Below, piece by piece: positions 1,261 to 25,978 of a stretch of DNA of 42,720 bases (positions are counted from its first letter, which is position 1; each line of letters begins with the position of its first letter). The position numbers and the translations under genes were made by a program. This DNA is from a virus: IMG/VR virus record IMGVR_UViG_3300045988_047747; one strand, given 5' to 3'. The notes under the pieces are model-generated. The model saw only the letters and a program-made list of their open reading frames with translations, did no database searches and was not told the origin of the DNA.

Positions 1261-1485
1261 CTATACGGTTGTTCCGTCAGGAAGATGGAAAAGAATCTCT
1301 GCGGTGCATCCGAGAGCCAAAGAAAGCTCTTGAATATCCTTTTCGGTAAAGTTTCCCCTTGCCATCTTGTTGGAAAGATTCTGCCGGGTTTGCCCAGTGG
1401 CTTCGGCAAGCTCGCCCATCGTCATCCCTTTACGCTTCATTATCAGGCGGATTTTTTCAGCAACAGTAAGTGTCATATCTTTCAC
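1261..1485 (-). CDS. XRE-family helix-turn-helix regulator (74 aa)
   Basis: MTMGELAEATGQTRQNLSNKMARGNFT is a classic Cro/CI-type HTH. GGAGGTG SD precedes the ATG. Gene is antisense to the surrounding late genes. Confidence 0.85.
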   Translation of the reverse strand: MKDMTLTVAEKIRLIMKRKGMTMGELAEATGQTRQNLSNKMARGNFTEKDIQELSLALGCTAEILFHLPDGTTV

Positions 1486-7156: not shown

Positions 7157-7561
7157 ATGAAATTTTTGACAGAGCTGTCCGATGAAGAGTTTCTGCGCCA
7201 CTGCTGGCAGATCGCCGATGTGGCAGAGGAGGTCTTGGAAAAATCCAAGATCATGGAGCTGCGCAAGGTTCTGCCGGTTCTGACCGGCGAGGAAACGCCG
7301 GAGGAGCTGGAACAGAAGAAGAAGGAGCAGGCAAAAAAGAACATTCAGGCTATGGCAAAAAGCTTGCTGTTCGACAATGCCGCTGCCACCGCAAAGCTGC
7401 TTCCGTTGCTCTATGAGCCGGACGTGGATGAAAACGGGGTGGTTGAAAACATCGGCCCGTTCAAGAAGATGCGCGCGGTAAAAGAGCTGCTGAACAACGA
7501 TGATGTGATGGATTTTTTGCTCTGGTGTCTGCCGTTGGTGCTGGCGGGTACAGACGCCTGA
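7157..7561 (+). CDS. Tail assembly chaperone (gpG-like)
   Basis: Acidic 134-aa ORF between the major tail and tape measure genes, overlapped by a -1 frame ORF. Confidence 0.75.
   Translation: MKFLTELSDEEFLRHCWQIADVAEEVLEKSKIMELRKVLPVLTGEETPEELEQKKKEQAKKNIQAMAKSLLFDNAAATAKLLPLLYEPDVDENGVVENIGPFKKMRAVKELLNNDDVMDFLLWCLPLVLAGTDA
7513..7519 (+). promoter_or_regulatory. Programmed -1 frameshift slippery heptamer T_TTT_TTG
   Basis: Zero-frame codons gaT TTT TTG. The -1 frame is open from the TGA at 7501 through 7827. Confidence 0.65.
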
Positions 7562-7838: not shown

Positions 7839-10607
7839 TTGAGCGCCACCCTTGGGCTGGACGACAGCGCCTACCGGCAGGGCGTGGAAGAGGCAAAGTC
7901 TCAGACTAAGACCGCTGTCTCCACCATGATGAAGGATTATAACCGGCTGTACAGTGAGGTCATTCACCTTACGGCAGCCTATCAGAAATCACGGAAAGAG
8001 ACCGGGGAAACCTCCGAAAAAACTAAGGAATTTGCCCAGAAGCTGAAAGAAGCTCAGGCCCAACTCAATACCACGGCACAGGGGCTAAAGACTGCGGAAG
8101 GGTACATGAACAGCTTTGGGGATGCCGCATCGGGGTCCGGCAAGTCTCTGGCCGGTGCTATTGCACAAGGCACGGTCATGGCGGGCATTTTCTCGAAGCT
8201 CGGCTCTGCTGCACTCAGTGCCGCAGAGGGGTTCATCTCTTCCGGCATCGAGTATAACGCCCAGATCGAGAAATACACCACCGGCTTTACCAATATGTTG
8301 GGCAGCGCGGAAGCCGCCCAGCAGGTCATGAGCCAGATCCAGGAAGACGCGGCAAAAACCCCGTTTGATGTCGAGTCCCTGACAAAGGCGAACCAATACT
8401 TGATCTCTGCAGGCGAGAACGCTTCCTATGCCCGCAGTACCATCATGGCACTGGGCGACGCGGTCTCTGCGACCGGCGGCGGCAACGACGAGCTGAACCG
8501 CATGTCCCAGAACCTGCAGCAGATCGCCAACACCGGCAAGGCTACAACGGCTGATATCAAGCAGTTTGCTTATGCCGGCATCGACGTATACGGCATTCTG
8601 GCCGACTACACAGGCAAGTCCACCGCTGAAGTGCAGAAGATGACCATCAGTTATGATCTTCTGACGCAGGCTTTGCAGGCTGCTTCCGAAGAGGGCGGGC
8701 GTTACTACAACAGCATGGACACCCAGAGCCAGACCATGAATGGCCGCGTGTCTACCCTGAAGGACAACGTGAGCCAGCTGACGGGATTGCTGACCGGCGA
8801 TTTATCCGGCGGCATCGGCGTTGTAATCGGCAATCTGAACGACATGCTCGTCGCAGCACAGGAAGCTTACAAAACGGACGGCTGGATTGGTCTCGCAGGC
8901 GCGATCACCGGCCTGACGGAGCCTATCAACACGGCAAAAAACGCTCTCAAGGACTTCGCAAGCAAAGCCACCACATGGCTGGATCAGCTGAGCTATAAAC
9001 TCAACCGTTTTCTCGGAAAAGCCGCCACAGCAGACTTCGATACCTACGAAGAGTACGCGGATGCAAATAACCGGAAGAGTAACCGTAACAGGATGCGGGA
9101 AAATGCATTAAATGGCATTGGCATCAGCAACAAGAGCTGGTCGGAGCGTCAGGCGGAAGCGGCAGCAGCCAGTGGCAACAGAGGCAGCTCCATTACAACC
9201 AGCCCGTCTGGCTCTTCCGCTGGCAAAAAATCCAGATCCTCCGGCTCCAAGTCCACCACCGAAACGGTCATTTCGTCCATCTCCAGCACAGCTACCACCA
9301 CCGCGCAGAATGCGCTGGGCACTGTGACCACCAGTATCCAGACTCTCACTGAAAAGGTCAAGGACAGCGCTGGCAAAATCAAAGACCGCATCACCGAGAC
9401 CACCACCACGACCGGCAAGGAGATGGTGAACGGTGTTGCCACGACTTTTAAGCAGGTCGAGACCAAAGTCAACGGCACGGTCACAAAGGTCACAAAGACC
9501 TATGACGACATGTCAAAAACGCTGCTGGGCACCTTTACCAACGTCTCGGAAACCACCTTTAACGGCATCACCACAAAGGTGCAGCAGGCGGTGGAAAAGT
9601 ACGCGGACGGCAGCGAGCATATCAAAAAGACCGTCACAGAGACCGGCCAGCGCATCGGCGAGAACGGCGCGGAGACCTACGAGAAGATCATCACCTACAT
9701 CGACGGCGTTCAAGACAAGGTTACGGAAACCTCCAACGAGATCGACAAGAGCGTGAAGGGCACCCAGAGCCGCATTGACCAGCAGCTGAGCGAGGCTTCC
9801 GGTCAGCTGGATAAGGGCATTTTCGGGCTGGTAAAGAACACCTTCAAAGACGCCAAAAACGGCGACTGGGCAAGTCTTGGGCTGGATTTTGTCAATCTGA
9901 TCTGGGGCGAAGTGTCGCAGGGGCAGCGTAACGTGATCTCTAAGTGGCTTACGGACGCACTGACCGCGGTCAACGAGGGCTACTTCAGCGGTGGCATCGG
10001 CAAGGCATTTGATATCTTCCAGAAGCTTTTTTCTGACGGCGGGGTAAAATCCGATATCGACGGTGTGACCAATTCGGTCAAGGCTTTTGGTGAGATCATC
10101 GACGATCTTGCAGGCTCCGGCGGCGTGGGCGGCGCTCTAGGCAGCATCGTCCAGAGCTTTTCCGGCATGGCTGGCGGCATCACGTCTGCGCTGGGCACTA
10201 TCGTGTCTTTTGTTGCAGCAAATCCTATTCTTGCCCTGATCCTGGGCGTGGGCGCTGTCGCTGGCGGCATTGGCCTTGCCATGTGGATGGACAAGAAGAA
10301 TAATCAGAAGCCTGTCAGCCACTACCAGAGCCCCTTTGACAAAACCGGCATGTATGACAGTCTGGGCACCTTCTCCACCCGTGCGGCCCTGCAGTACCGC
10401 GTCACCGGCCAGCAGTCCATTGTTGACCGGCAGACCAGCATTCTGGAACGCATCGAGGGGATGCTGGACGAGCATCTGCCAGACATCGGCAAGGGTCAGG
10501 TGGTCATGGATTCCGGTGAACTGGTGGGCGTGCTGTCGACCCGCATGGCGACCAACGTAGATGCACGCATCGGCGTGACAGTGGAACGGAAAGCGAGGGG
10601 TGTGTAA
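7839..10607 (+). CDS. Tape measure protein (922 aa)
   Basis: Largest ORF, helical and low-complexity with a C-terminal G-rich hydrophobic segment, in the canonical position. TTG start is uncertain. Confidence 0.9.
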   Translation: MSATLGLDDSAYRQGVEEAKSQTKTAVSTMMKDYNRLYSEVIHLTAAYQKSRKETGETSEKTKEFAQKLKEAQAQLNTTAQGLKTAEGYMNSFGDAASGSGKSLAGAIAQGTVMAGIFSKLGSAALSAAEGFISSGIEYNAQIEKYTTGFTNMLGSAEAAQQVMSQIQEDAAKTPFDVESLTKANQYLISAGENASYARSTIMALGDAVSATGGGNDELNRMSQNLQQIANTGKATTADIKQFAYAGIDVYGILADYTGKSTAEVQKMTISYDLLTQALQAASEEGGRYYNSMDTQSQTMNGRVSTLKDNVSQLTGLLTGDLSGGIGVVIGNLNDMLVAAQEAYKTDGWIGLAGAITGLTEPINTAKNALKDFASKATTWLDQLSYKLNRFLGKAATADFDTYEEYADANNRKSNRNRMRENALNGIGISNKSWSERQAEAAAASGNRGSSITTSPSGSSAGKKSRSSGSKSTTETVISSISSTATTTAQNALGTVTTSIQTLTEKVKDSAGKIKDRITETTTTTGKEMVNGVATTFKQVETKVNGTVTKVTKTYDDMSKTLLGTFTNVSETTFNGITTKVQQAVEKYADGSEHIKKTVTETGQRIGENGAETYEKIITYIDGVQDKVTETSNEIDKSVKGTQSRIDQQLSEASGQLDKGIFGLVKNTFKDAKNGDWASLGLDFVNLIWGEVSQGQRNVISKWLTDALTAVNEGYFSGGIGKAFDIFQKLFSDGGVKSDIDGVTNSVKAFGEIIDDLAGSGGVGGALGSIVQSFSGMAGGITSALGTIVSFVAANPILALILGVGAVAGGIGLAMWMDKKNNQKPVSHYQSPFDKTGMYDSLGTFSTRAALQYRVTGQQSIVDRQTSILERIEGMLDEHLPDIGKGQVVMDSGELVGVLSTRMATNVDARIGVTVERKARGV

Positions 10608-16881: not shown

Positions 16882-17205
16882 TTACAGCAGCTTGTAGTGC
16901 TCCGCCAGCAAAAAGCGGACATACGCCGGGCACGCACGCTTTTCACAGCACCAGTCCTGCACGGTTCGCCGCGGAATGCCCGCCCGCTTTGCAAAAGTGG
17001 TCTGAGACAGACTGGTGCGGACTACTAGCTCACGCATTGGAAGATGAGCTAAATCCCAGATGGTGGACAGCCTTGCCTTCTCGGCATCCAAGTCGATGCA
17101 GCCGGAAGTGTCATCCGGGACGCTAAGAGTGATGTTGTTGAGGAACGCTGCCCTGGACGCTTCCGGGTCAGCAGCCATAATAAAGAGTTCAGCAGTAGTA
17201 TACAT
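16882..17205 (-). CDS. HTH DNA-binding protein (107 aa)
   Basis: GAAGGAGAAG SD before ATG 17205. C-terminus LSQTTFAKRAGIPRRTVQDWCCEKRACPAYVRFLL is an XRE-like HTH. Confidence 0.75.
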   Translation of the reverse strand: MYTTAELFIMAADPEASRAAFLNNITLSVPDDTSGCIDLDAEKARLSTIWDLAHLPMRELVVRTSLSQTTFAKRAGIPRRTVQDWCCEKRACPAYVRFLLAEHYKLL

Positions 17206-17264
17206 AGTCTTCTCCTTCTTAAATCTCCCCGGTCGATGTTCGCACATCGGCTGGGGACTTTTCT

Positions 17265-17549
17265 TTACTCCATATCTTCCAGAGCTTCAAGATACTTCGG
17301 GTAAAGATCTTCCACGACGGCCTGTCTCTCAACGTCGTCCAGATTGCCGTTCATGAGTGCCTCACCCTCTTTATCGGAGAGTTCGATGCTGGTAGTGACC
17401 ATCAGGTCGCGAGCGTCCAGATGAGAGGTCTTGACGTCGCCATCATCGGTAAGGTGCGCGTAAATCATCCAAACGCCGTTGTCGCACTCAATTTCGGTAC
17501 CGGTGGCCATAACCTTAGTTGCGAACTCGTCAGCAGTAAGCTTTTTCAT
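17265..17549 (-). CDS. Small strongly acidic protein (94 aa)
   Basis: GGAGGT SD before ATG 17549. Many D/E residues. First gene after a consensus promoter. Confidence 0.7.
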   Translation of the reverse strand: MKKLTADEFATKVMATGTEIECDNGVWMIYAHLTDDGDVKTSHLDARDLMVTTSIELSDKEGEALMNGNLDDVERQAVVEDLYPKYLEALEDME

Positions 17550-17601
17550 AATTGTTACCTCCATGTCTCCATGTGTTTGTGTGGTGTCTTTCACGGTCTT
17601 T

Positions 17602-17630
17602 ATTATACACGCATTGCGTGTAATTGTCAA
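17602..17630 (-). promoter_or_regulatory. Leftward consensus promoter TTGACA-17-TATAAT
   Basis: Minus strand reads ttgaca attacacgcaatgcgtg tataat. Confidence 0.75.
17606..17622. promoter_or_regulatory. Operator: perfect 8-1-8 palindrome tacacgca-t-tgcgtgta overlapping the spacer and -10
   Basis: Reverse complement checked by hand; only the central base differs. Confidence 0.7.
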
Positions 17631-17647
17631 GACTTTTTTGAAAATTT

Positions 17648-17664
17648 TATACGCGTTGCGTGCA
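17648..17664. promoter_or_regulatory. Second operator-like site (14/17 identical to 17606..17622)
   Basis: tatacgcgttgcgtgca, centred 42 nt from the centre of the first site. Confidence 0.5.
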
Positions 17665-17788
17665 AATCCTTGAGCGTCCATACAGCCCTGTGCTGTGTGG
17701 GCGCTTTTCTTTTTTGTCCTTCGTTGTGCGTTCGTTGTCTCTCACGGCGGTTTAAAAAAGTACACTGGGCGCAAAGGGAGGGGGTGCC

Positions 17789-21338: not shown

Positions 21339-22472
21339 TCAGTACTTCATCTTCTGCATTTCCTGCAACAAATAGGCTGGATCGTTGTGGGACACGTACT
21401 TGTTTGCCGTGGTGGAGAAATTTTTGTGGCCCAAGATGGCCTGCACGGCGGTCTTTTCCAGGCCGCACTCCACCATCTTACTACTGGCCGTGTGGCGCAG
21501 CGTGTGTGGATGCACGCCCTCTATATGGCATTCCTGCATCAACGCCCGGAACTTTGTAGCCACGTTGCGCTTATCCAGCTTTGTGCAGGCCTTGGATGGA
21601 ATCAGCCATTCACACCCGCTGTCCAGCATCCAAAAGGCAATGATCTTGTAAATGGGCTCAAGGATGGGGATAATGCGGTTTTTGCCCATCTCGGTCTTTT
21701 CACCGCCCTGCATGTACCGCTCTTTCAGGTGCACGTCCTCGCAGCGCATGGAAAGCAGCTCGTCAATGCGCATACCGGTATAAAGAAGCACCATTGCGAT
21801 TTGCGCCGTCTGCCCAAACTTCGGGTCATTCTGTCGGCTGCTGATCTGCTCGATCTCTTGGGCGGTCAGGGTGCGTTCTTCCTTGCCTGTAGCCGCTGGG
21901 AGCTGCAAGAGCATAGCATAGTTTTTGTTTATGATGTCCTGAGCCATTGCCCACTCGCAGATCTGGCTGAAAAGCGTGCGCTGCTTTTCGCAGGAGCTGC
22001 GGGAGAGGCCCTTTTCCACCATTGCGTCAATGACCTGTTGATAATCTGCAGCTTTCAAGTCCCGCAATTGTCGGTCGTACAGCGGCGTAGCCTTTGCATA
22101 GGCCAGCTCATAACCCTTTTTCATGTCAGTGCTGAGCTTGTCAAATTTGGGCTGCGCTTTCCATTGGGCATAGGCATCCGCAAAGGTGCACTTCAGACGC
22201 GCTGCGGGGGTGTTCTGGGCGTTGTAAGCGTCTAATGCTTGTACGGCTTCGCCTGCCGTTTCAAACGTCCCCAGAACGTCCCTTTTGGCCGTAAGCGCCA
22301 CATACGGTCTTGCCCGCGTCCCGCTCAGTTTATACACGCTGCCGCTTCCCTTGGGACGGCGGCGCTTTTTTCTTTGCTGCGGGGCGGCTTCCGGCTGCTT
22401 TTTCCCGCACCACGGACAAAAAGAAGCACCATCCGGGATCTCTTTCCGGCAGCATGGTCTCACGCATTTCAT
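21339..22472 (-). CDS. int: Tyrosine integrase with N-terminal zinc-ribbon
   Basis: C-terminal HTLRHT...LGHKNFSTTANKYVH catalytic motifs. N-terminus CVRPCCRKEIPDGASFCPWCGKK. Confidence 0.9.
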   Translation of the reverse strand: MKCVRPCCRKEIPDGASFCPWCGKKQPEAAPQQRKKRRRPKGSGSVYKLSGTRARPYVALTAKRDVLGTFETAGEAVQALDAYNAQNTPAARLKCTFADAYAQWKAQPKFDKLSTDMKKGYELAYAKATPLYDRQLRDLKAADYQQVIDAMVEKGLSRSSCEKQRTLFSQICEWAMAQDIINKNYAMLLQLPAATGKEERTLTAQEIEQISSRQNDPKFGQTAQIAMVLLYTGMRIDELLSMRCEDVHLKERYMQGGEKTEMGKNRIIPILEPIYKIIAFWMLDSGCEWLIPSKACTKLDKRNVATKFRALMQECHIEGVHPHTLRHTASSKMVECGLEKTAVQAILGHKNFSTTANKYVSHNDPAYLLQEMQKMKY

Positions 22473-22475
22473 GGC

Positions 22476-23063
22476 TTACTCCTTTTTCTGCCCGATATAT
22501 CCGAAGGCACCATTTTCAGCAGCGGCCCTTCCGGCCTTGTAGTTGATCTTCAGGTCTTCAATGGGAGGGTGTGGAGCGTCCGGGCATGGGTCTAATCCCA
22601 TGCTCTGGGCAAAGTTGTATTGGTCGATGATTGTTCCGCATATGCTGACCCGGTTATTGAGCGGGCAGTGCAAATTTGCAGCTATCTCCGATATGACAGC
22701 AGGCGGGCTGCTGCCGTGACTGCCTTTCAGTATGAAGAGAAGCAGCCTTTTTGTCAGTGGCGGCAGGCTTACCACGAGACGGCGCAGCTCCGTGTTTAAC
22801 TCATCGTCTGCCTTGCCGTTATCCGGCACTTTGTACAGATCCGGGTGAGTCATCTCCATGAACACCGTGATGGGCGACACCCCACACGCCGTGCACCAGT
22901 CCATGATCTCGTCACTGTCCGGGCTGGTGCATCCTTTTTCCCAGCTCTGCACGGTGCGCTCTCCTTTTTCGATGCGCCTTGCGATCTCCGCTTGGCTCAG
23001 GCCAGCAGACACCCGCGTTTTTGCAAGTGCCTTTCCGATTTGGCTCGCCGTAAAATAACTCAT
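22476..23063 (-). CDS. XRE-family HTH protein with an approximately 130-aa C-terminal domain
   Basis: GGGGGTGA SD before ATG 23063. GLSQAEIARRIEKGERTVQSWEKG HTH. Stop lies 3 nt before the integrase start. Confidence 0.8.
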   Translation of the reverse strand: MSYFTASQIGKALAKTRVSAGLSQAEIARRIEKGERTVQSWEKGCTSPDSDEIMDWCTACGVSPITVFMEMTHPDLYKVPDNGKADDELNTELRRLVVSLPPLTKRLLLFILKGSHGSSPPAVISEIAANLHCPLNNRVSICGTIIDQYNFAQSMGLDPCPDAPHPPIEDLKINYKAGRAAAENGAFGYIGQKKE

Positions 23064-23094
23064 ACTTTCACCCCCATAAAACCAGTGTGTTTTT

Positions 23095-23128
23095 AACAAA
23101 AAATGGCGCAGAAAAAGTCTGCGCCATT
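23095..23128 (-). terminator. Terminator-like hairpin in the leader of the HTH-integrase operon
   Basis: Perfect 11-bp stem aatggcgcaga/tctgcgccatt, loop aaaag. On the minus strand it is followed by TTTTGTT, 38 nt before the ATG. Confidence 0.55.
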
Positions 23129-23166
23129 CGACAAATTTTATCCGTATTTTGTTTTCCAACGGCGCA

Positions 23167-23185
23167 TGGTAAAATCTGGATTATA
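23167..23185. promoter_or_regulatory. Overlapping opposed promoter elements: plus-strand TGgTAAAAT and minus-strand TATAAT
   Basis: tggtaaaat at 23167..23175. attata at 23180..23185 is TATAAT on the minus strand. Confidence 0.35.
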
Positions 23186-23221
23186 AATCGTAGATGTGCA
23201 CAAAAGAAAGGAGAAAACAAA

Positions 23222-23332
23222 ATGGATTTTGAGCAAAGAAACAGTAAAGAAACTGAAATGACCATCATCGACGGAATGCCTGCCAGCATCCTGACCGGCA
23301 CCGAACGCACCCCTGCACCTTGGGAGGAATGA
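23222..23332 (+). CDS. Small ORF (36 aa)
   Basis: AAAGGAG at 23208. Sequence MDFEQRNSKETEMTIIDGMPASILTGTERTPAPWEE. Confidence 0.45.
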   Translation: MDFEQRNSKETEMTIIDGMPASILTGTERTPAPWEE

Positions 23333-23335
23333 GTT

Positions 23336-23548
23336 ATGAAAAAGCTGTCACACTTTCGCACCCATGCCCGTGCCCTGCTGGCCTGCTATTTGGATATGAC
23401 CCCGGAGCAGCAGCGCCTTGCTCGCGCTTACATTCAAGATAAGGCCCTGCCGGAGGTGCAAGCCCTGCGTAACGCAGCCGGTACGCCCGGCGGGGCGCTG
23501 GCTGCTGACCTGTTGCAAAATTTGCAACATCCTTGCAACCGCGAATAG
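23336..23548 (+). CDS. Hypothetical protein (70 aa)
   Basis: GGGAGGA SD. Protein-like sequence, unlike the antisense alternatives. Confidence 0.6.
   Translation: MKKLSHFRTHARALLACYLDMTPEQQRLARAYIQDKALPEVQALRNAAGTPGGALAADLLQNLQHPCNRE
23513..23527. promoter_or_regulatory. Perfect 7-1-7 palindrome TTGCAAA-A-TTTGCAA plus nearby TTGCAA half-sites
   Basis: Further TTGCAA copies at 23533 and 23593. Confidence 0.4.
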
Positions 23549-23648
23549 CAACGTGCATTTTTTGCACATTGCTCGTGCATGCCGCGCGCATCTTGCAAAT
23601 ACGCATTTTTTGTGGATTTTTCCACTAAAAGCAGTGCACGAATGGGGA

Positions 23649-23677
23649 TTGACGACCACAACCAGCAGTTTTATAAT
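23649..23677 (+). promoter_or_regulatory. Near-consensus promoter TTGACG-17-TATAAT facing into the 3' end of the leftward SHOCT gene
   Basis: ttgacg accacaaccagcagttt tataat. A 7-bp inverted repeat cacaacc/ggttgtg brackets the -10. Confidence 0.65.
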
Positions 23678-23693
23678 ATGGTTGTGAACAGGC

Positions 23694-24410
23694 TTACAGG
23701 CCAAGCAACTGAGATTTCTTTGCGTTGTACTCCGCTTCCGTGATGGCCCCCATATCCAGTAGCTGCTTAAACTTCAAAAGTTCATCGGCGGAGCAGGGGG
23801 CAGCCGGAGCAGTGCCCTGCGGCTGTTCTGGAGAGCCTTTGCAACTCTTGAGAAACGCAGTCATTCCGCCGGGATAAACCGTTGTCGGCAAGTTGCTTTC
23901 GCCTAGTGGAAGCGCAAAGTGGATAGACACGCTCTCTTTACTGCGACCCTTGCGGGTCTCTGTTTTAGCGGTGGTAGCGCCCACGATCGCACCCACAGGC
24001 CCGGCAACGGCTGCACCGATCACGGCACGTCCAATACCACCCTTTGTCTCTGTCACCGTCAGATCGTCAGGAGTATCAGAATCATACCCAGCGACTTCAT
24101 CAAAACTGTAGATCATGCGAGGGCCTTTATCGCCGCTGCGGTGTCCAATGCAAAACAGCCGGTTGGGTTTGTCGATGGACACAAAGAGCGCGTCACTATC
24201 ATAGATGGAATCGGTTTCTTTGAACGTCTTTCGGCGGTTTTCCAGCGTAATCCAGTATTCCGCAAGTGCAGCTGTCGGTTGCTTTGCTGCCCGGATACCC
24301 AATTTTGAAAAGAAAAAGTTGCTGCAGCTGGCGCAAATCAAGCTGTCAGCGCTTTTCTCACGGTTCAGCAGACCCAACTTGCCGCCGCAGACAGGACAGG
24401 CATTTGCCAT
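23694..24410 (-). CDS. Zn-ribbon / glycine-zipper / SHOCT-domain protein (238 aa)
   Basis: GAGGTG SD. CPVCGGK...CASCS. GGIGRAVIGAAVAGPVGAIVGATT glycine zipper. C-terminal SADELLKFKQLLDMGAITEAEYNAKKSQLLGL matches the SHOCT consensus. Confidence 0.75.
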   Translation of the reverse strand: MANACPVCGGKLGLLNREKSADSLICASCSNFFFSKLGIRAAKQPTAALAEYWITLENRRKTFKETDSIYDSDALFVSIDKPNRLFCIGHRSGDKGPRMIYSFDEVAGYDSDTPDDLTVTETKGGIGRAVIGAAVAGPVGAIVGATTAKTETRKGRSKESVSIHFALPLGESNLPTTVYPGGMTAFLKSCKGSPEQPQGTAPAAPCSADELLKFKQLLDMGAITEAEYNAKKSQLLGL

Positions 24411-24423
24411 AATAAGCACCTCA

Positions 24424-24455
24424 CATAAACAAAAATAGGCAGCCAATCAGCTGCC
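24424..24455 (-). terminator. Weak terminator-like hairpin just upstream of the SHOCT gene SD
   Basis: ggcagc/gctgcc 6-bp stem, 6-nt loop. On the minus strand it is followed by TATTTTTGTTTAT. Confidence 0.45.
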
Positions 24456-24650
24456 GAAAAGCTAAATTATCAAGGAAAACGCCAAAGGGGGAAAATAAAG
24501 TGCAAGAAAATAGCACAAAATTTGCAAAATGTGATACAATGGAAGAAAAGTGCCGTCTCAAAGCTTTATTTTCTTCTCTGTCGGCACAGGAAAAACAAGA
24601 GGTGCTTTCCTATGCGGAAAGCCTGCTCAACAGCAGAAAGGAGTAAATCT

Positions 24651-25100
24651 GTGGATAAGTACGAAATTGAACTGGGTCGGTACAAAACCAGAATTTTTGC
24701 TCTTCTGGCAACGGAAGCGTCCGGCCTGCCCGGAATCAAAAGCGAAGAGTGCGCAAATTGCGACCACCGGTGCTCTCTTGAAATCGGGTGTTACTGCTTC
24801 AACTACGGATGCGGAAAGGGCAAGACCACGGAAGAGCTGCACGAAGCATTTGACCGCGTTTGTGATGCCCTTAAAATTTCTGGCCGAAGATGGACACCAG
24901 CAAATCCAATGCGGCCTGAAGTATTTGATTCTCCCGATCTGCTCGAAGCTCTTGAAGATAGGCTTCTCCAGCTAGCGGAAGAGAATAAATGTACTCGCTG
25001 GGAAGAAAACCACCCACCCCGTCAGGAATGTACTCTTTGCGGCGCTCATCAATCAGACCGCGTCCCTTCAAGTTCTGAATGTACCGATTCTGGCCGTTGA
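24651..25100 (+). CDS. Cys-rich hypothetical protein; C-terminal 230 nt overlap a convergent gene
   Basis: AAAGGAG lies 7 nt before GTG 24651. CANCDHRCSLEIGCYCFNYGCGKG. Third-position GC drops after about 24870, so the true end is uncertain. Confidence 0.4.
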   Translation: MDKYEIELGRYKTRIFALLATEASGLPGIKSEECANCDHRCSLEIGCYCFNYGCGKGKTTEELHEAFDRVCDALKISGRRWTPANPMRPEVFDSPDLLEALEDRLLQLAEENKCTRWEENHPPRQECTLCGAHQSDRVPSSSECTDSGR

Positions 25101-25212
25101 AACTGAAATCCTCGCCGGAAATGAGACAGACTTCGTGCTGGTTCATTTTCCCGTTGTGCTTCTCCATATATAATAGGAGAGCCAGGCTCTTTTTGTCCAA
25201 AAACTCAGCCAT
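24871..25212 (-). CDS. Hypothetical protein (113 aa), possible winged-helix
   Basis: ATG 25212 overlaps the stop of the upstream repressor gene by 8 nt. GC3 is higher than in the opposing frame. Confidence 0.65.
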   Translation of the reverse strand: MAEFLDKKSLALLLYMEKHNGKMNQHEVCLISGEDFSFNGQNRYIQNLKGRGLIDERRKEYIPDGVGGFLPSEYIYSLPLAGEAYLQELRADRENQILQAALDLLVSIFGQKF

Positions 25213-25561
25213 TGGGGTTTTCCTTCCTCTTTGCAACCTTAAATTCCATATACTCCAGAAGATCTGCACGGTCTGCATCGGTCATCTGACTTAGCAGCTC
25301 GTCAAACCTTGCATCCAGCCCACTCCCTTCACCGGGGGTGGGCTTTTCTTTTTGCTCTTCGCCCATAAGCTCTTCAATAGAAATTCGTAGAAAATCAGAC
25401 ACAAGCAGTAGCTTATCTTTCGGCGGATAGCGCTTTCCATTAGCCCATTTTCCTACTGTTCCGTTGGCAAATTTCAAATCTTTCTCCATTTTTGTAATGG
25501 AGCTTCCTTGATTTTTACACGATACACGGATAAATTCCACCAGTTCAGGCAAAGAACGCAT
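25205..25561 (-). CDS. CI-type repressor candidate, XRE HTH (118 aa)
   Basis: GGAGGAA SD. ITKMEKDLKFANGTVGKWANGKRYP HTH. Divergent from the Cro-like gene across an operator-bearing promoter. Confidence 0.85.
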   Translation of the reverse strand: MRSLPELVEFIRVSCKNQGSSITKMEKDLKFANGTVGKWANGKRYPPKDKLLLVSDFLRISIEELMGEEQKEKPTPGEGSGLDARFDELLSQMTDADRADLLEYMEFKVAKRKENPNG

Positions 25562-25577
25562 AAAAAAATTCCTCCAA

Positions 25578-25615
25578 TAGCCTAATTTTCTATTGACAGA
25601 TAGAAAATTAGGCTA
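25578..25615. promoter_or_regulatory. Operator: perfect 15-bp inverted repeat tagcctaattttcta / tagaaaattaggcta
   Basis: The arms flank the -35 hexamer and fill the spacer of the rightward promoter. Confidence 0.8.
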
Positions 25616-25621
25616 TATAAT
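25593..25621 (+). promoter_or_regulatory. Rightward early promoter, exact consensus TTGACA-17-TATAAT
   Basis: ttgaca gatagaaaattaggcta tataat. Confidence 0.8.
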
Positions 25622-25762
25622 AGAGAGCGTAAGGAGCAAACAAAACCAAAGCCCCTGACAATATTATATCGGGCAGACGCTAGATTTTATTCACTTTGTA
25701 CCTTGCAACTACATAGTAGCATATTTTCTAGTGATTTTCAAGCCCGGAAAGGAGAATTGCTA

Positions 25763-25978
25763 GTGAATGTATCAAAAATTGACCAGTTTTGCAAGTTGCA
25801 CGGACTGAGCCGCACCGATCTGGAGGCGGCGGCAGGCCTGAGCAACGGCGCAATCGGCAAGTGGGAGCGCTCGATTTACGGGCCAAGCCTTTCACAGTTG
25901 CTCAAGCTCGCAAAGTATTTCAAGGTCACACTGAACGAGCTTGTGGTCTACGATGAGGAAGGAGGAAAGCCTGAATGA
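25763..25978 (+). CDS. Cro-like XRE HTH protein (71 aa)
   Basis: AAAGGAG lies 8 nt before GTG 25763. LSRTDLEAAAGLSNGAIGKWERS HTH. Confidence 0.75.
   Translation: MNVSKIDQFCKLHGLSRTDLEAAAGLSNGAIGKWERSIYGPSLSQLLKLAKYFKVTLNELVVYDEEGGKPE

Follow-up and report, generated by a model that had tools for sequence, protein, structure and literature searches.

Does a promoter that fires into the 3' end of a phage gene belong to that gene, as the antisense promoter of a toxin would, or to the place in the genome that the gene occupies? The question is raised by IMG/VR virus record IMGVR_UViG_3300045988_047747 (42,720 nucleotides, nt; the window, by which we mean the whole stretch that was analysed), in which a leftward gene for a protein of 238 amino acids (aa) is faced by a near-consensus promoter pointing rightward. 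The initial annotation had read the two as one unit, reminiscent of antisense-controlled toxic membrane proteins. We found that the gene is a cargo gene of the lysogeny module which belongs to an already catalogued, uncharacterised family and that it is not an antisense-controlled toxin. Comparison of related loci indicates that the promoter belongs to the phage backbone, where it marks the 3' edge of a cargo slot, and is not part of the unit of this gene. What adds interest to the locus is this exchange slot, which is precise to the open reading frame (ORF) and has an inward-facing promoter as its boundary. The elements concerned are the following.

23649 to 23677, plus strand: promoter with TTGACG (23649-23654), a 17-nt spacer and TATAAT (23672-23677), 11 of 12 consensus positions
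23657 to 23686: inverted repeat of 8 base pairs (bp), CACAACCA (23657-23664) and TGGTTGTG (23679-23686), which brackets the -10 element; possible operator
23683 to 23698: palindrome TGTRAAC-NN-GTTYACA at about +1 to +16 of the promoter, holding the cargo stop codon; 3' boundary of the slot
23694 to 24410, minus strand: cargo ORF, 238 aa, with its ATG at 24410
24417 to 24422, minus strand: ribosome-binding site GAGGTG, 6 nt 5' of the cargo ATG and kept in every upstream context
24411 to 24522: conserved 112-bp leader and divergent control region of the slot, found ahead of different cargo ORFs

Convergent promoter and exchange of the cargo gene

The TTGACG-17-TATAAT promoter was present as described and runs rightward into the 3' end of the gene, its -10 element ending 16 nt before the cargo stop codon. 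Five sites with at least 11 of 12 matches were observed in the window where shuffled sequences led us to expect 0.26 (maximum 2), an enrichment of about 20-fold, and one of the five is the early promoter at 25593 beside the cI/cro pair. The inverted repeat reported around the -10 element also exists, with arms of 8 bp rather than the 7 bp first given, and arms of 7-8 bp are retained in 50 of 77 related loci. Conservation of the promoter was followed in 86 loci with a homologue, all of which except the distant L001 encode a protein of at least 85% identity. In this set TATAAT never varies where the region is present and TTGAC hardly does, while the sequence 5' of the -35 element is replaced outright in some groups and the spacer is partly diverged with a length of 17 or 18 nt. 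A conserved GGTTGTGAA stands after the -10 element. The palindrome that follows shows one mismatch in the window, is perfect in some sister loci and occurs also behind other cargo ORFs. Judged from its sequence and conservation, the promoter is very probably functional and therefore must yield transcription antisense to the cargo gene.

It is extremely unlikely that the promoter-like sequence is a chance match or is kept for another reason, for instance to provide the cargo mRNA with a 3' hairpin or a terminator. In the leftward mRNA the arms of the inverted repeat could pair into a hairpin, but the invariant TATAAT would then sit in its loop, where such conservation is not expected, and the cargo strand shows no T run after this hairpin. 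Chance alone is opposed by the excess of such sites over the shuffles.

A second survey, anchored on the neighbouring helix-turn-helix (HTH) gene, covered 80 loci of the same phage group. The slot was occupied by the PH_gly_zipper gene (the family of the cargo protein) in 52 of these loci. One alternative occupant encodes a zinc-ribbon/transmembrane protein of 187-189 aa with Lipoprotein_Ltp repeats (PF07553, E 5e-28), and others encode a secreted protein of 243-250 aa, lipoproteins of 332 and 377 aa, proteins of 205, 313 and 314 aa, or consist of two-gene arrays. At least eight alternative cargo types were thus observed within the same flanks, which is the variable occupancy of a fixed backbone position that is expected of a moron. 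On their 5' side the unrelated ORFs share the 112-bp leader that carries the hairpin and the ribosome-binding site, and on their 3' side they share palindrome and promoter, with a TAA or TGA stop codon inside the palindrome. Across these loci, one or two leftward genes are shown to be swapped ORF for ORF between the conserved 5' leader and the 3' boundary formed by palindrome and promoter.

The moron, or lysogenic-conversion cassette, is a concept that goes back to Hendrix and Juhala. The cargo gene resembles such genes as it is variable at a fixed position among near-identical phages, runs against the main transcription and has regulatory signals at its bounds. The exchange observed here differs in being ORF-precise, with a shared leader on the 5' side, the stop codon placed in a shared palindrome and a 3' edge made by an inward promoter instead of a terminator.

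We noticed that the promoter is not tied to the gene. Of 51 loci with the PH_gly_zipper gene, 37 show the strict promoter pattern, and so do 20 of the 26 in which the slot carries other cargo. Furthermore, at least seven close loci carry an intact ORF without the antisense promoter: in five contigs (L080-L083 and L085) a deletion of about 140 bp removes the promoter and leaves the ORF intact, and in L002/L003, which represent a different prophage, a Bro-N gene follows directly after the ORF. A toxin that requires this antisense promoter is therefore incompatible with these loci. Because the same leader and promoter flank unrelated cargo, and because intact genes occur without the promoter, the promoter was assigned to the backbone and the proposed unit of gene and antisense promoter was abandoned.

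The same observations make it very unlikely that the protein is a toxic membrane effector, of the abortive-infection or type-I-toxin-like kind, which is restrained by antisense RNA or transcriptional interference from a dedicated convergent promoter. The promoter is strong, is conserved and fires into the 3' end of the gene, but it does the same to unrelated cargo which includes secreted proteins and the Ltp homologue, and both intact phage genes and chromosomal copies circulate without it. In Bacillus prophage type I systems, antisense RNAs overlap the 3' end of the toxin gene. One such module does lie beside the homologue at locus L174, but the promoter there serves a separate 31-aa toxin ORF and not the homologue. 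The glycine-zipper segment is borderline transmembrane in hydropathy and glycine zippers can permeabilise membranes (PMC10240207), but the protein is 238 aa long and mostly globular, and fusions described below put both ends of the module in the cytoplasm so that the zipper would not be a simple membrane span. In addition, neither a PADLOC match to the protein nor an Rfam toxin/antitoxin match to the region was found.

The geometry is that of txpA/RatA and bsrG/SR4 of Bacillus subtilis prophages, in which the gene of a membrane-active protein is likewise met by a convergent antisense promoter from beyond its 3' end. The toxins of those systems are hydrophobic peptides of less than 60 aa which are obligatorily linked to their antitoxin RNA, whereas the promoter observed here is not specific to the gene, and the gene does not require it. 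Two marks of a type I system are absent: at 238 aa the protein is not a small hydrophobic peptide of less than about 60 aa, and linkage is not obligate, the gene being found without the promoter and the promoter with unrelated cargo.

The cargo protein and its family

The leftward protein of 238 aa was found at 23694..24410 on the minus strand, and the 4-Cys ribbon, Gly-zipper segment and SHOCT tail ascribed to it were all recovered. Its layout is as follows.

residues 1-37: DUF4428 zinc ribbon
residues 46-62: helix
residues 67-111 and 158-192: PH-like beta sandwich
residues ~117-154: glycine-zipper insertion in the PH-like sandwich
after the sandwich: linker, then two SHOCT helices at residues 207-236

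Matches above the Pfam gathering score were obtained for DUF4428 (PF14471, residues 5-32, E 6.7e-7) and SHOCT (PF09851, residues 209-236, E 1.2e-8), and the middle part is covered by PF27000 'PH_gly_zipper', a precomputed Pfam match on the identical protein. The best 19-residue hydropathy of the zipper segment is 1.68, which is borderline for a membrane span. The AlphaFold2 model (pLDDT 82) shows the zinc ribbon, the helix, the PH-like sandwich with a C-terminal helix and the two SHOCT helices, with the Gly-rich segment modelled as a low-confidence helix-turn-helix insertion between strands. A fold search of the PDB placed PH domains at the top with a weak score (E 0.06) and returned none at E <= 0.001, while the matches among viral structures were unnamed phage proteins labelled 'Short C-terminal domain' or 'Bacterial PH domain'. 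No solved structure of any relative was found by sequence search. The cargo protein has no Pfam match to PF07553 (Ltp) and neither a signal peptide nor a lipobox, and in NCBIfam only a local glycine-zipper resemblance was seen.

The family is large. When clustered at 50% identity, it comprises 1658 clusters at E <= 0.001 and 276 clusters at E <= 1e-10, and the majority are full-length proteins with a length near 230 aa. When 39 diverse homologues were aligned, the four cysteines (C5, C8, C26 and C29) proved invariant, and a conserved core VTKxKGGxGRAxVGGxxxGxVGAxVGAxTAK appeared together with the SHOCT motif. The Gly zipper at about 124-147 is the most conserved stretch. The cargo protein aligns over its full length with proteins of the same three-part PF27000/DUF4428/SHOCT architecture (PHROG 888) and is structurally no different from them; what this copy adds is context. 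The exact protein is indexed in 210 blocks of a metagenome collection. A scan of a genome collection with the family alignment returned 80 loci, which were mostly SHOCT-only proteins because the SHOCT motif was the only part usable as a pattern. Among the homologues, P0175 consists of the whole module followed by a Lys-flanked transmembrane helix and two Ltp domains, and related fusions were observed in P0239, with a transmembrane helix and DUF4352, and in P0157, with a TM2 domain.

A convergent promoter was also considered as a family-wide trait, and strong promoters near the homologues at L001, L174, L177 and L180 were first taken as support; all of them were explained otherwise. The promoter at L001 (12 of 12) drives an RNA of about 80 nt which has its own terminator and ends before the coding sequence of the homologue. 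That at L174 (12 of 12) is part of a separate bsrG-like type I module and serves its own small RNA and 31-aa toxin ORF. At L180 a cro-like gene, likewise convergent, lies downstream of the strong promoter and is presumably served by it, and at L177 the DNA is 27% GC, where such matches are common. Chromosomal homologues of three lineages showed no antisense promoter-like site of at least 9/12.

Two of these sites deserve a description of their own. At L001 the perfect-consensus promoter occupies 7497..7469 on the minus strand and the RNA stops at a strong terminator at 7415..7394 (region 7385-7497); this RNA of about 80 nt is unannotated, lies between the homologue and the integrase and matches no Rfam family. 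The stretch L174:8010-8263, between a distant homologue and the integrase, is likely a type I toxin-antitoxin module. Its hydrophobic ORF of 31 aa, MMPMVTYSDLFTFVIMICAIVTLVCNFRHKK, occupies 8041..8136 and matches the Rfam BsrG family below threshold (E 9.5e-4). A small RNA of roughly 100 nt converges on it, running from the 12/12 promoter at 8263..8235 to a terminator of its own.

Possible roles of the cargo protein and of the promoter

We consider it probable that the region serves a temperate gut phage as the cargo (moron) slot of its lysogeny module, with an inward backbone promoter and with roles of protein and promoter as outlined in this section. The backbone would run in the order integrase, HTH protein, two small convergent ORFs, slot, divergent small ORF or ORFs and cI-like repressor. 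The placement in the lysogeny region given by the initial annotation agrees with the neighbours found: integrase, HTH, cI-like and cro-like genes and a Rha/ANT antirepressor.

21339 to 22472, minus strand: tyrosine integrase with an N-terminal zinc ribbon (CxxC...CxxC), backbone
22476 to 23063, minus strand: HTH protein, 195 aa, backbone
23101 to 23129, minus strand: intrinsic terminator, 11-bp stem and T run, the first canonical one downstream of the cargo gene on its own strand
23222 to 23332 and 23336 to 23548, plus strand: backbone ORFs of 36 aa and 70 aa, which point towards the cargo gene and away from the HTH-integrase pair
23549 to 23648: variable intergenic region 5' of the promoter with short palindromes that have T-rich centres, such as GTGCATTTTTTGCAC and GTGGATTTTTCCAC; candidate regulator-binding sites
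24438 to 24455, minus strand: GC-rich hairpin of the conserved 5' leader, shortly before the ribosome-binding site; UAUUUUUGUUU follows it
~24465 to 24473, minus strand: candidate promoter of the cargo gene, extended -10 TGATAATTT
24500 to 24646, plus strand: divergent ORF of 48 aa with a good ribosome-binding site, the next translatable plus-strand ORF downstream of the convergent promoter
25205 to 25561, minus strand: cI-like HTH gene, with the cro-like HTH gene and the Rha/ANT antirepressor as further neighbours

It is a serious though tentative possibility that the cargo protein is a membrane-docked, oligomeric protein of the cytoplasmic face which hinders the entry of incoming phage genomes and so serves exclusion or defence. 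A role in superinfection exclusion or defence can reasonably, if indirectly, be inferred, as an Ltp-type homologue uses the same slot, a family member is fused to Ltp domains and homologues are located between repressor and integrase. Ltp of the Streptococcus thermophilus phage TP-J34 (PF07553) is a prophage-expressed exclusion lipoprotein which is encoded in the lysogeny module (PMC3952083). The cargo gene resembles it in position, in having an Ltp-domain protein in the identical slot of sister phages and in the Ltp fusion of its family. The cargo protein differs in that it has no Ltp domain, signal peptide or lipobox and would act from the cytoplasmic side, whereas Ltp acts outside. Since Ltp is extracellular in the fusions, the zinc ribbon and SHOCT would both be cytoplasmic, and the Gly zipper would therefore be a re-entrant or peripheral hairpin and not a single membrane span. 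The protein may thus lie on the cytoplasmic face of the membrane with its PH-like domain dipping the Gly-zipper helical hairpin into the inner leaflet, and SHOCT may oligomerise or anchor it. SHOCT-like domains have been predicted to be inner-leaflet anchors (PMC11237479), and some homologues of the membrane nuclease SNIPE carry DUF4428 or PH domains in place of a transmembrane anchor (bioRxiv 10.1101/2025.11.03.685801). The protein would be made in the lysogen and would interfere with genome entry of superinfecting phages, as may the Ltp-type and other envelope proteins that share the slot.

A broader reading, which we regard as somewhat doubtful, is that PH_gly_zipper/SHOCT proteins make up a large and so far unrecognised class of Firmicutes prophage proteins with exclusion or defence functions, which would act from the cytoplasmic face by a PH domain with a re-entrant Gly-zipper hairpin, and that promoter and palindrome are the generic off-switch or insulator of an ORF-precise slot. 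At present the protein is annotated as hypothetical and its genomic position is an ordinary one. Should the protein indeed block superinfection, this would be the first function for the family, which numbers hundreds of sequence clusters from gut Clostridia and the phages of these bacteria. Exclusion proteins are for the most part known as external lipoproteins or as integral proteins of the membrane, and a mechanism on the cytoplasmic side would then be added to them. The slot is in itself a natural experiment, with one regulatory frame and at least eight alternative envelope-type genes, and is useful for mining exclusion functions and for studying how a convergent promoter tunes prophage cargo.

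The context of distant homologues bears on a different view of the protein, namely that it is a general membrane-homeostasis or stress factor which the phage carries as a lysogen fitness gene and which has no anti-phage action. In unrelated prophages, a homologue was found between a cI-type repressor (HTH and Peptidase_S24) and the integrase, or beside an ImmR/ImmA-like pair and the integrase, which is the classical location of prophage-expressed exclusion genes such as ltp (PMC3952083). The repressor-integrase position recurs in unrelated prophages, but three of the eight distant lineages sampled have chromosomal neighbourhoods without phage genes. The family is therefore not exclusively a phage-borne anti-phage factor. 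We consider the homeostasis view rather unlikely. It would account for these non-prophage copies in several Clostridia lineages and for the lack of a match to a defence-system model, and SHOCT-like domains have been tied to envelope-stress (PSP) contexts (PMC11237479), but it does not lead one to expect the recurrence between repressor and integrase, nor the sharing of a slot with, and fusion to, Ltp-type exclusion domains.

As for the promoter, it would most likely damp or switch off leftward transcription of whichever cargo is present, either through antisense RNA or through collision of RNA polymerases. No canonical terminator was found on the cargo strand until 23129..23101, and leftward transcripts would therefore cross the 70-aa and 36-aa ORFs in antisense towards HTH-integrase; the promoter may shield the small ORFs and the HTH-integrase block from such read-through. 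The inverted repeat at the -10 element, the palindrome around +1 and the variable set of short palindromes 5' of the promoter suggest that the promoter is itself regulated. In our interpretation it is not an antitoxin for the cargo protein. Lambda OOP RNA and coliphage 186 pR/pL provide precedents of promoters that fire back into a lysogeny-side gene. As in those phages, the promoter stands just past the end of the gene, an arrangement which allows control by antisense RNA or interference. The present case differs in lacking an evident short terminated RNA and in having interchangeable cargo, and not a switch regulator, as its target.

The statement that no plausible ORF lies downstream was confirmed, as no ORF of at least 15 aa with a ribosome-binding site was found on the plus strand at 23678-24499. 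A small peptide made from the promoter was considered and rejected: the divergent group does not conserve the frame of 19-21 aa, and an ORF with a ribosome-binding site does not exist there. Rfam gave no relevant toxin or antitoxin RNA in 22900-25800.

These findings bear on the quite improbable alternative that the promoter chiefly starts a rightward operon, with a leader of about 815 nt that runs antisense through the slot to the plus-strand ORFs 24500-24646 and 24651-25100, any antisense effect on the cargo being incidental. The lack of an intervening plus-strand ORF would suit such a leader. The 48-aa ORF has a good ribosome-binding site and no recognisable promoter of its own in 24411-24499, and rightward transcription would not be stopped by the hairpin at 24438-24455, which lacks a T run on the plus strand. 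But an antisense leader of 815 nt is unusual, the 48-aa and 149-aa ORFs were not called by gene callers, and in many promoter-bearing sister loci the cargo is followed by co-oriented genes (417-aa or 301-aa) and by no plus-strand ORF.

Several results weigh against the reading of a regulated exclusion cargo. Besides the chromosomal lineages, none of the PADLOC-DB 2.0 defence models matched the cargo protein (0 families at E <= 1), and PHROG 888, which it matches at E 4e-32, is without known function. On the side of the promoter, the predicted fold of the antisense RNA over 23684-23975 is no more stable than that of shuffled sequences (z 0.09), synonymous diversity of the cargo gene is not lower at its 3' end, and the search for a clear plus-strand terminator of the antisense RNA gave only a weak 5-bp hairpin at 23945-23958, which is conserved because the encoded amino acids are conserved. 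The transcription of the cargo itself also poses a difficulty. Promoter candidates are weak, being an extended -10 TGATAATTT and TGCTATTTT, with no minus-strand site of at least 9/12 upstream, and the terminator-like hairpin at 24438..24455 sits between any upstream promoter and the cargo ribosome-binding site. This hairpin may be either a terminator or attenuator for leftward transcripts from upstream or a 5' stabiliser of the cargo mRNA.

Flanking elements and other sites in the window

The 112-bp leader at 24411..24522 also holds the ribosome-binding site and the first eight codons (MQENSTK.) of the divergent plus-strand ORF, which starts with GTG at 24500. Past these codons, sister phages continue with unrelated coding sequence, and a recombination junction is therefore placed just inside this ORF. 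TTGCAAAATTTGCAA forms a perfect 7-1-7 palindrome at 23513-23527 inside the 70-aa ORF and has a degenerate copy at 24513-24527, exactly 1000 bp away across the cargo gene; the pair is perhaps a recombination junction. As a gene-flanking repeat (23513 and 24513) it was rejected, since further copies are lacking and the pair, at 3 mismatches, does not exceed chance expectation.

On the integrase side, the 70-aa ORF and the 195-aa HTH protein were observed to switch allele jointly, both falling to about 51% identity in one sister group (L050-L076), while the 36-aa ORF and the integrase remain 83-94% identical in the same comparison. The joint switch suggests that the two are a specificity pair. 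Integrated copies adjoin an rRNA adenine dimethylase gene in metagenome scaffolds (L004 and L090).

In the interval between the cI-like and cro-like genes (25578-25621), we observed a perfect 16-bp inverted repeat, TAGCCTAATTTTCTAT (25578-25593) and ATAGAAAATTAGGCTA (25600-25615). It overlaps the -35 element and spacer of the 12/12 early promoter and is presumably the main operator. An operator common to the slot promoter and this cI/cro switch was considered and dropped, as the TGTRAAC palindrome is missing at the 25593 promoter, which has its own 16-bp repeat.

Two further sites are distant from the slot. Within the otherwise rightward late region, the leftward ORFs 17265..17681 and 16882..17247 stand behind a 12/12 promoter at 17630 on the minus strand, and this pair (16882-17681) looks like a second moron. 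A low-GC patch at 1261-2117 shows promoter-like sites at 1569 (plus strand, 12/12), 1808 (minus strand, 11/12) and 1528 (minus strand, 10/12) around a 74-aa HTH gene at 1261..1485 on the minus strand, and this cluster may be another regulatory islet.

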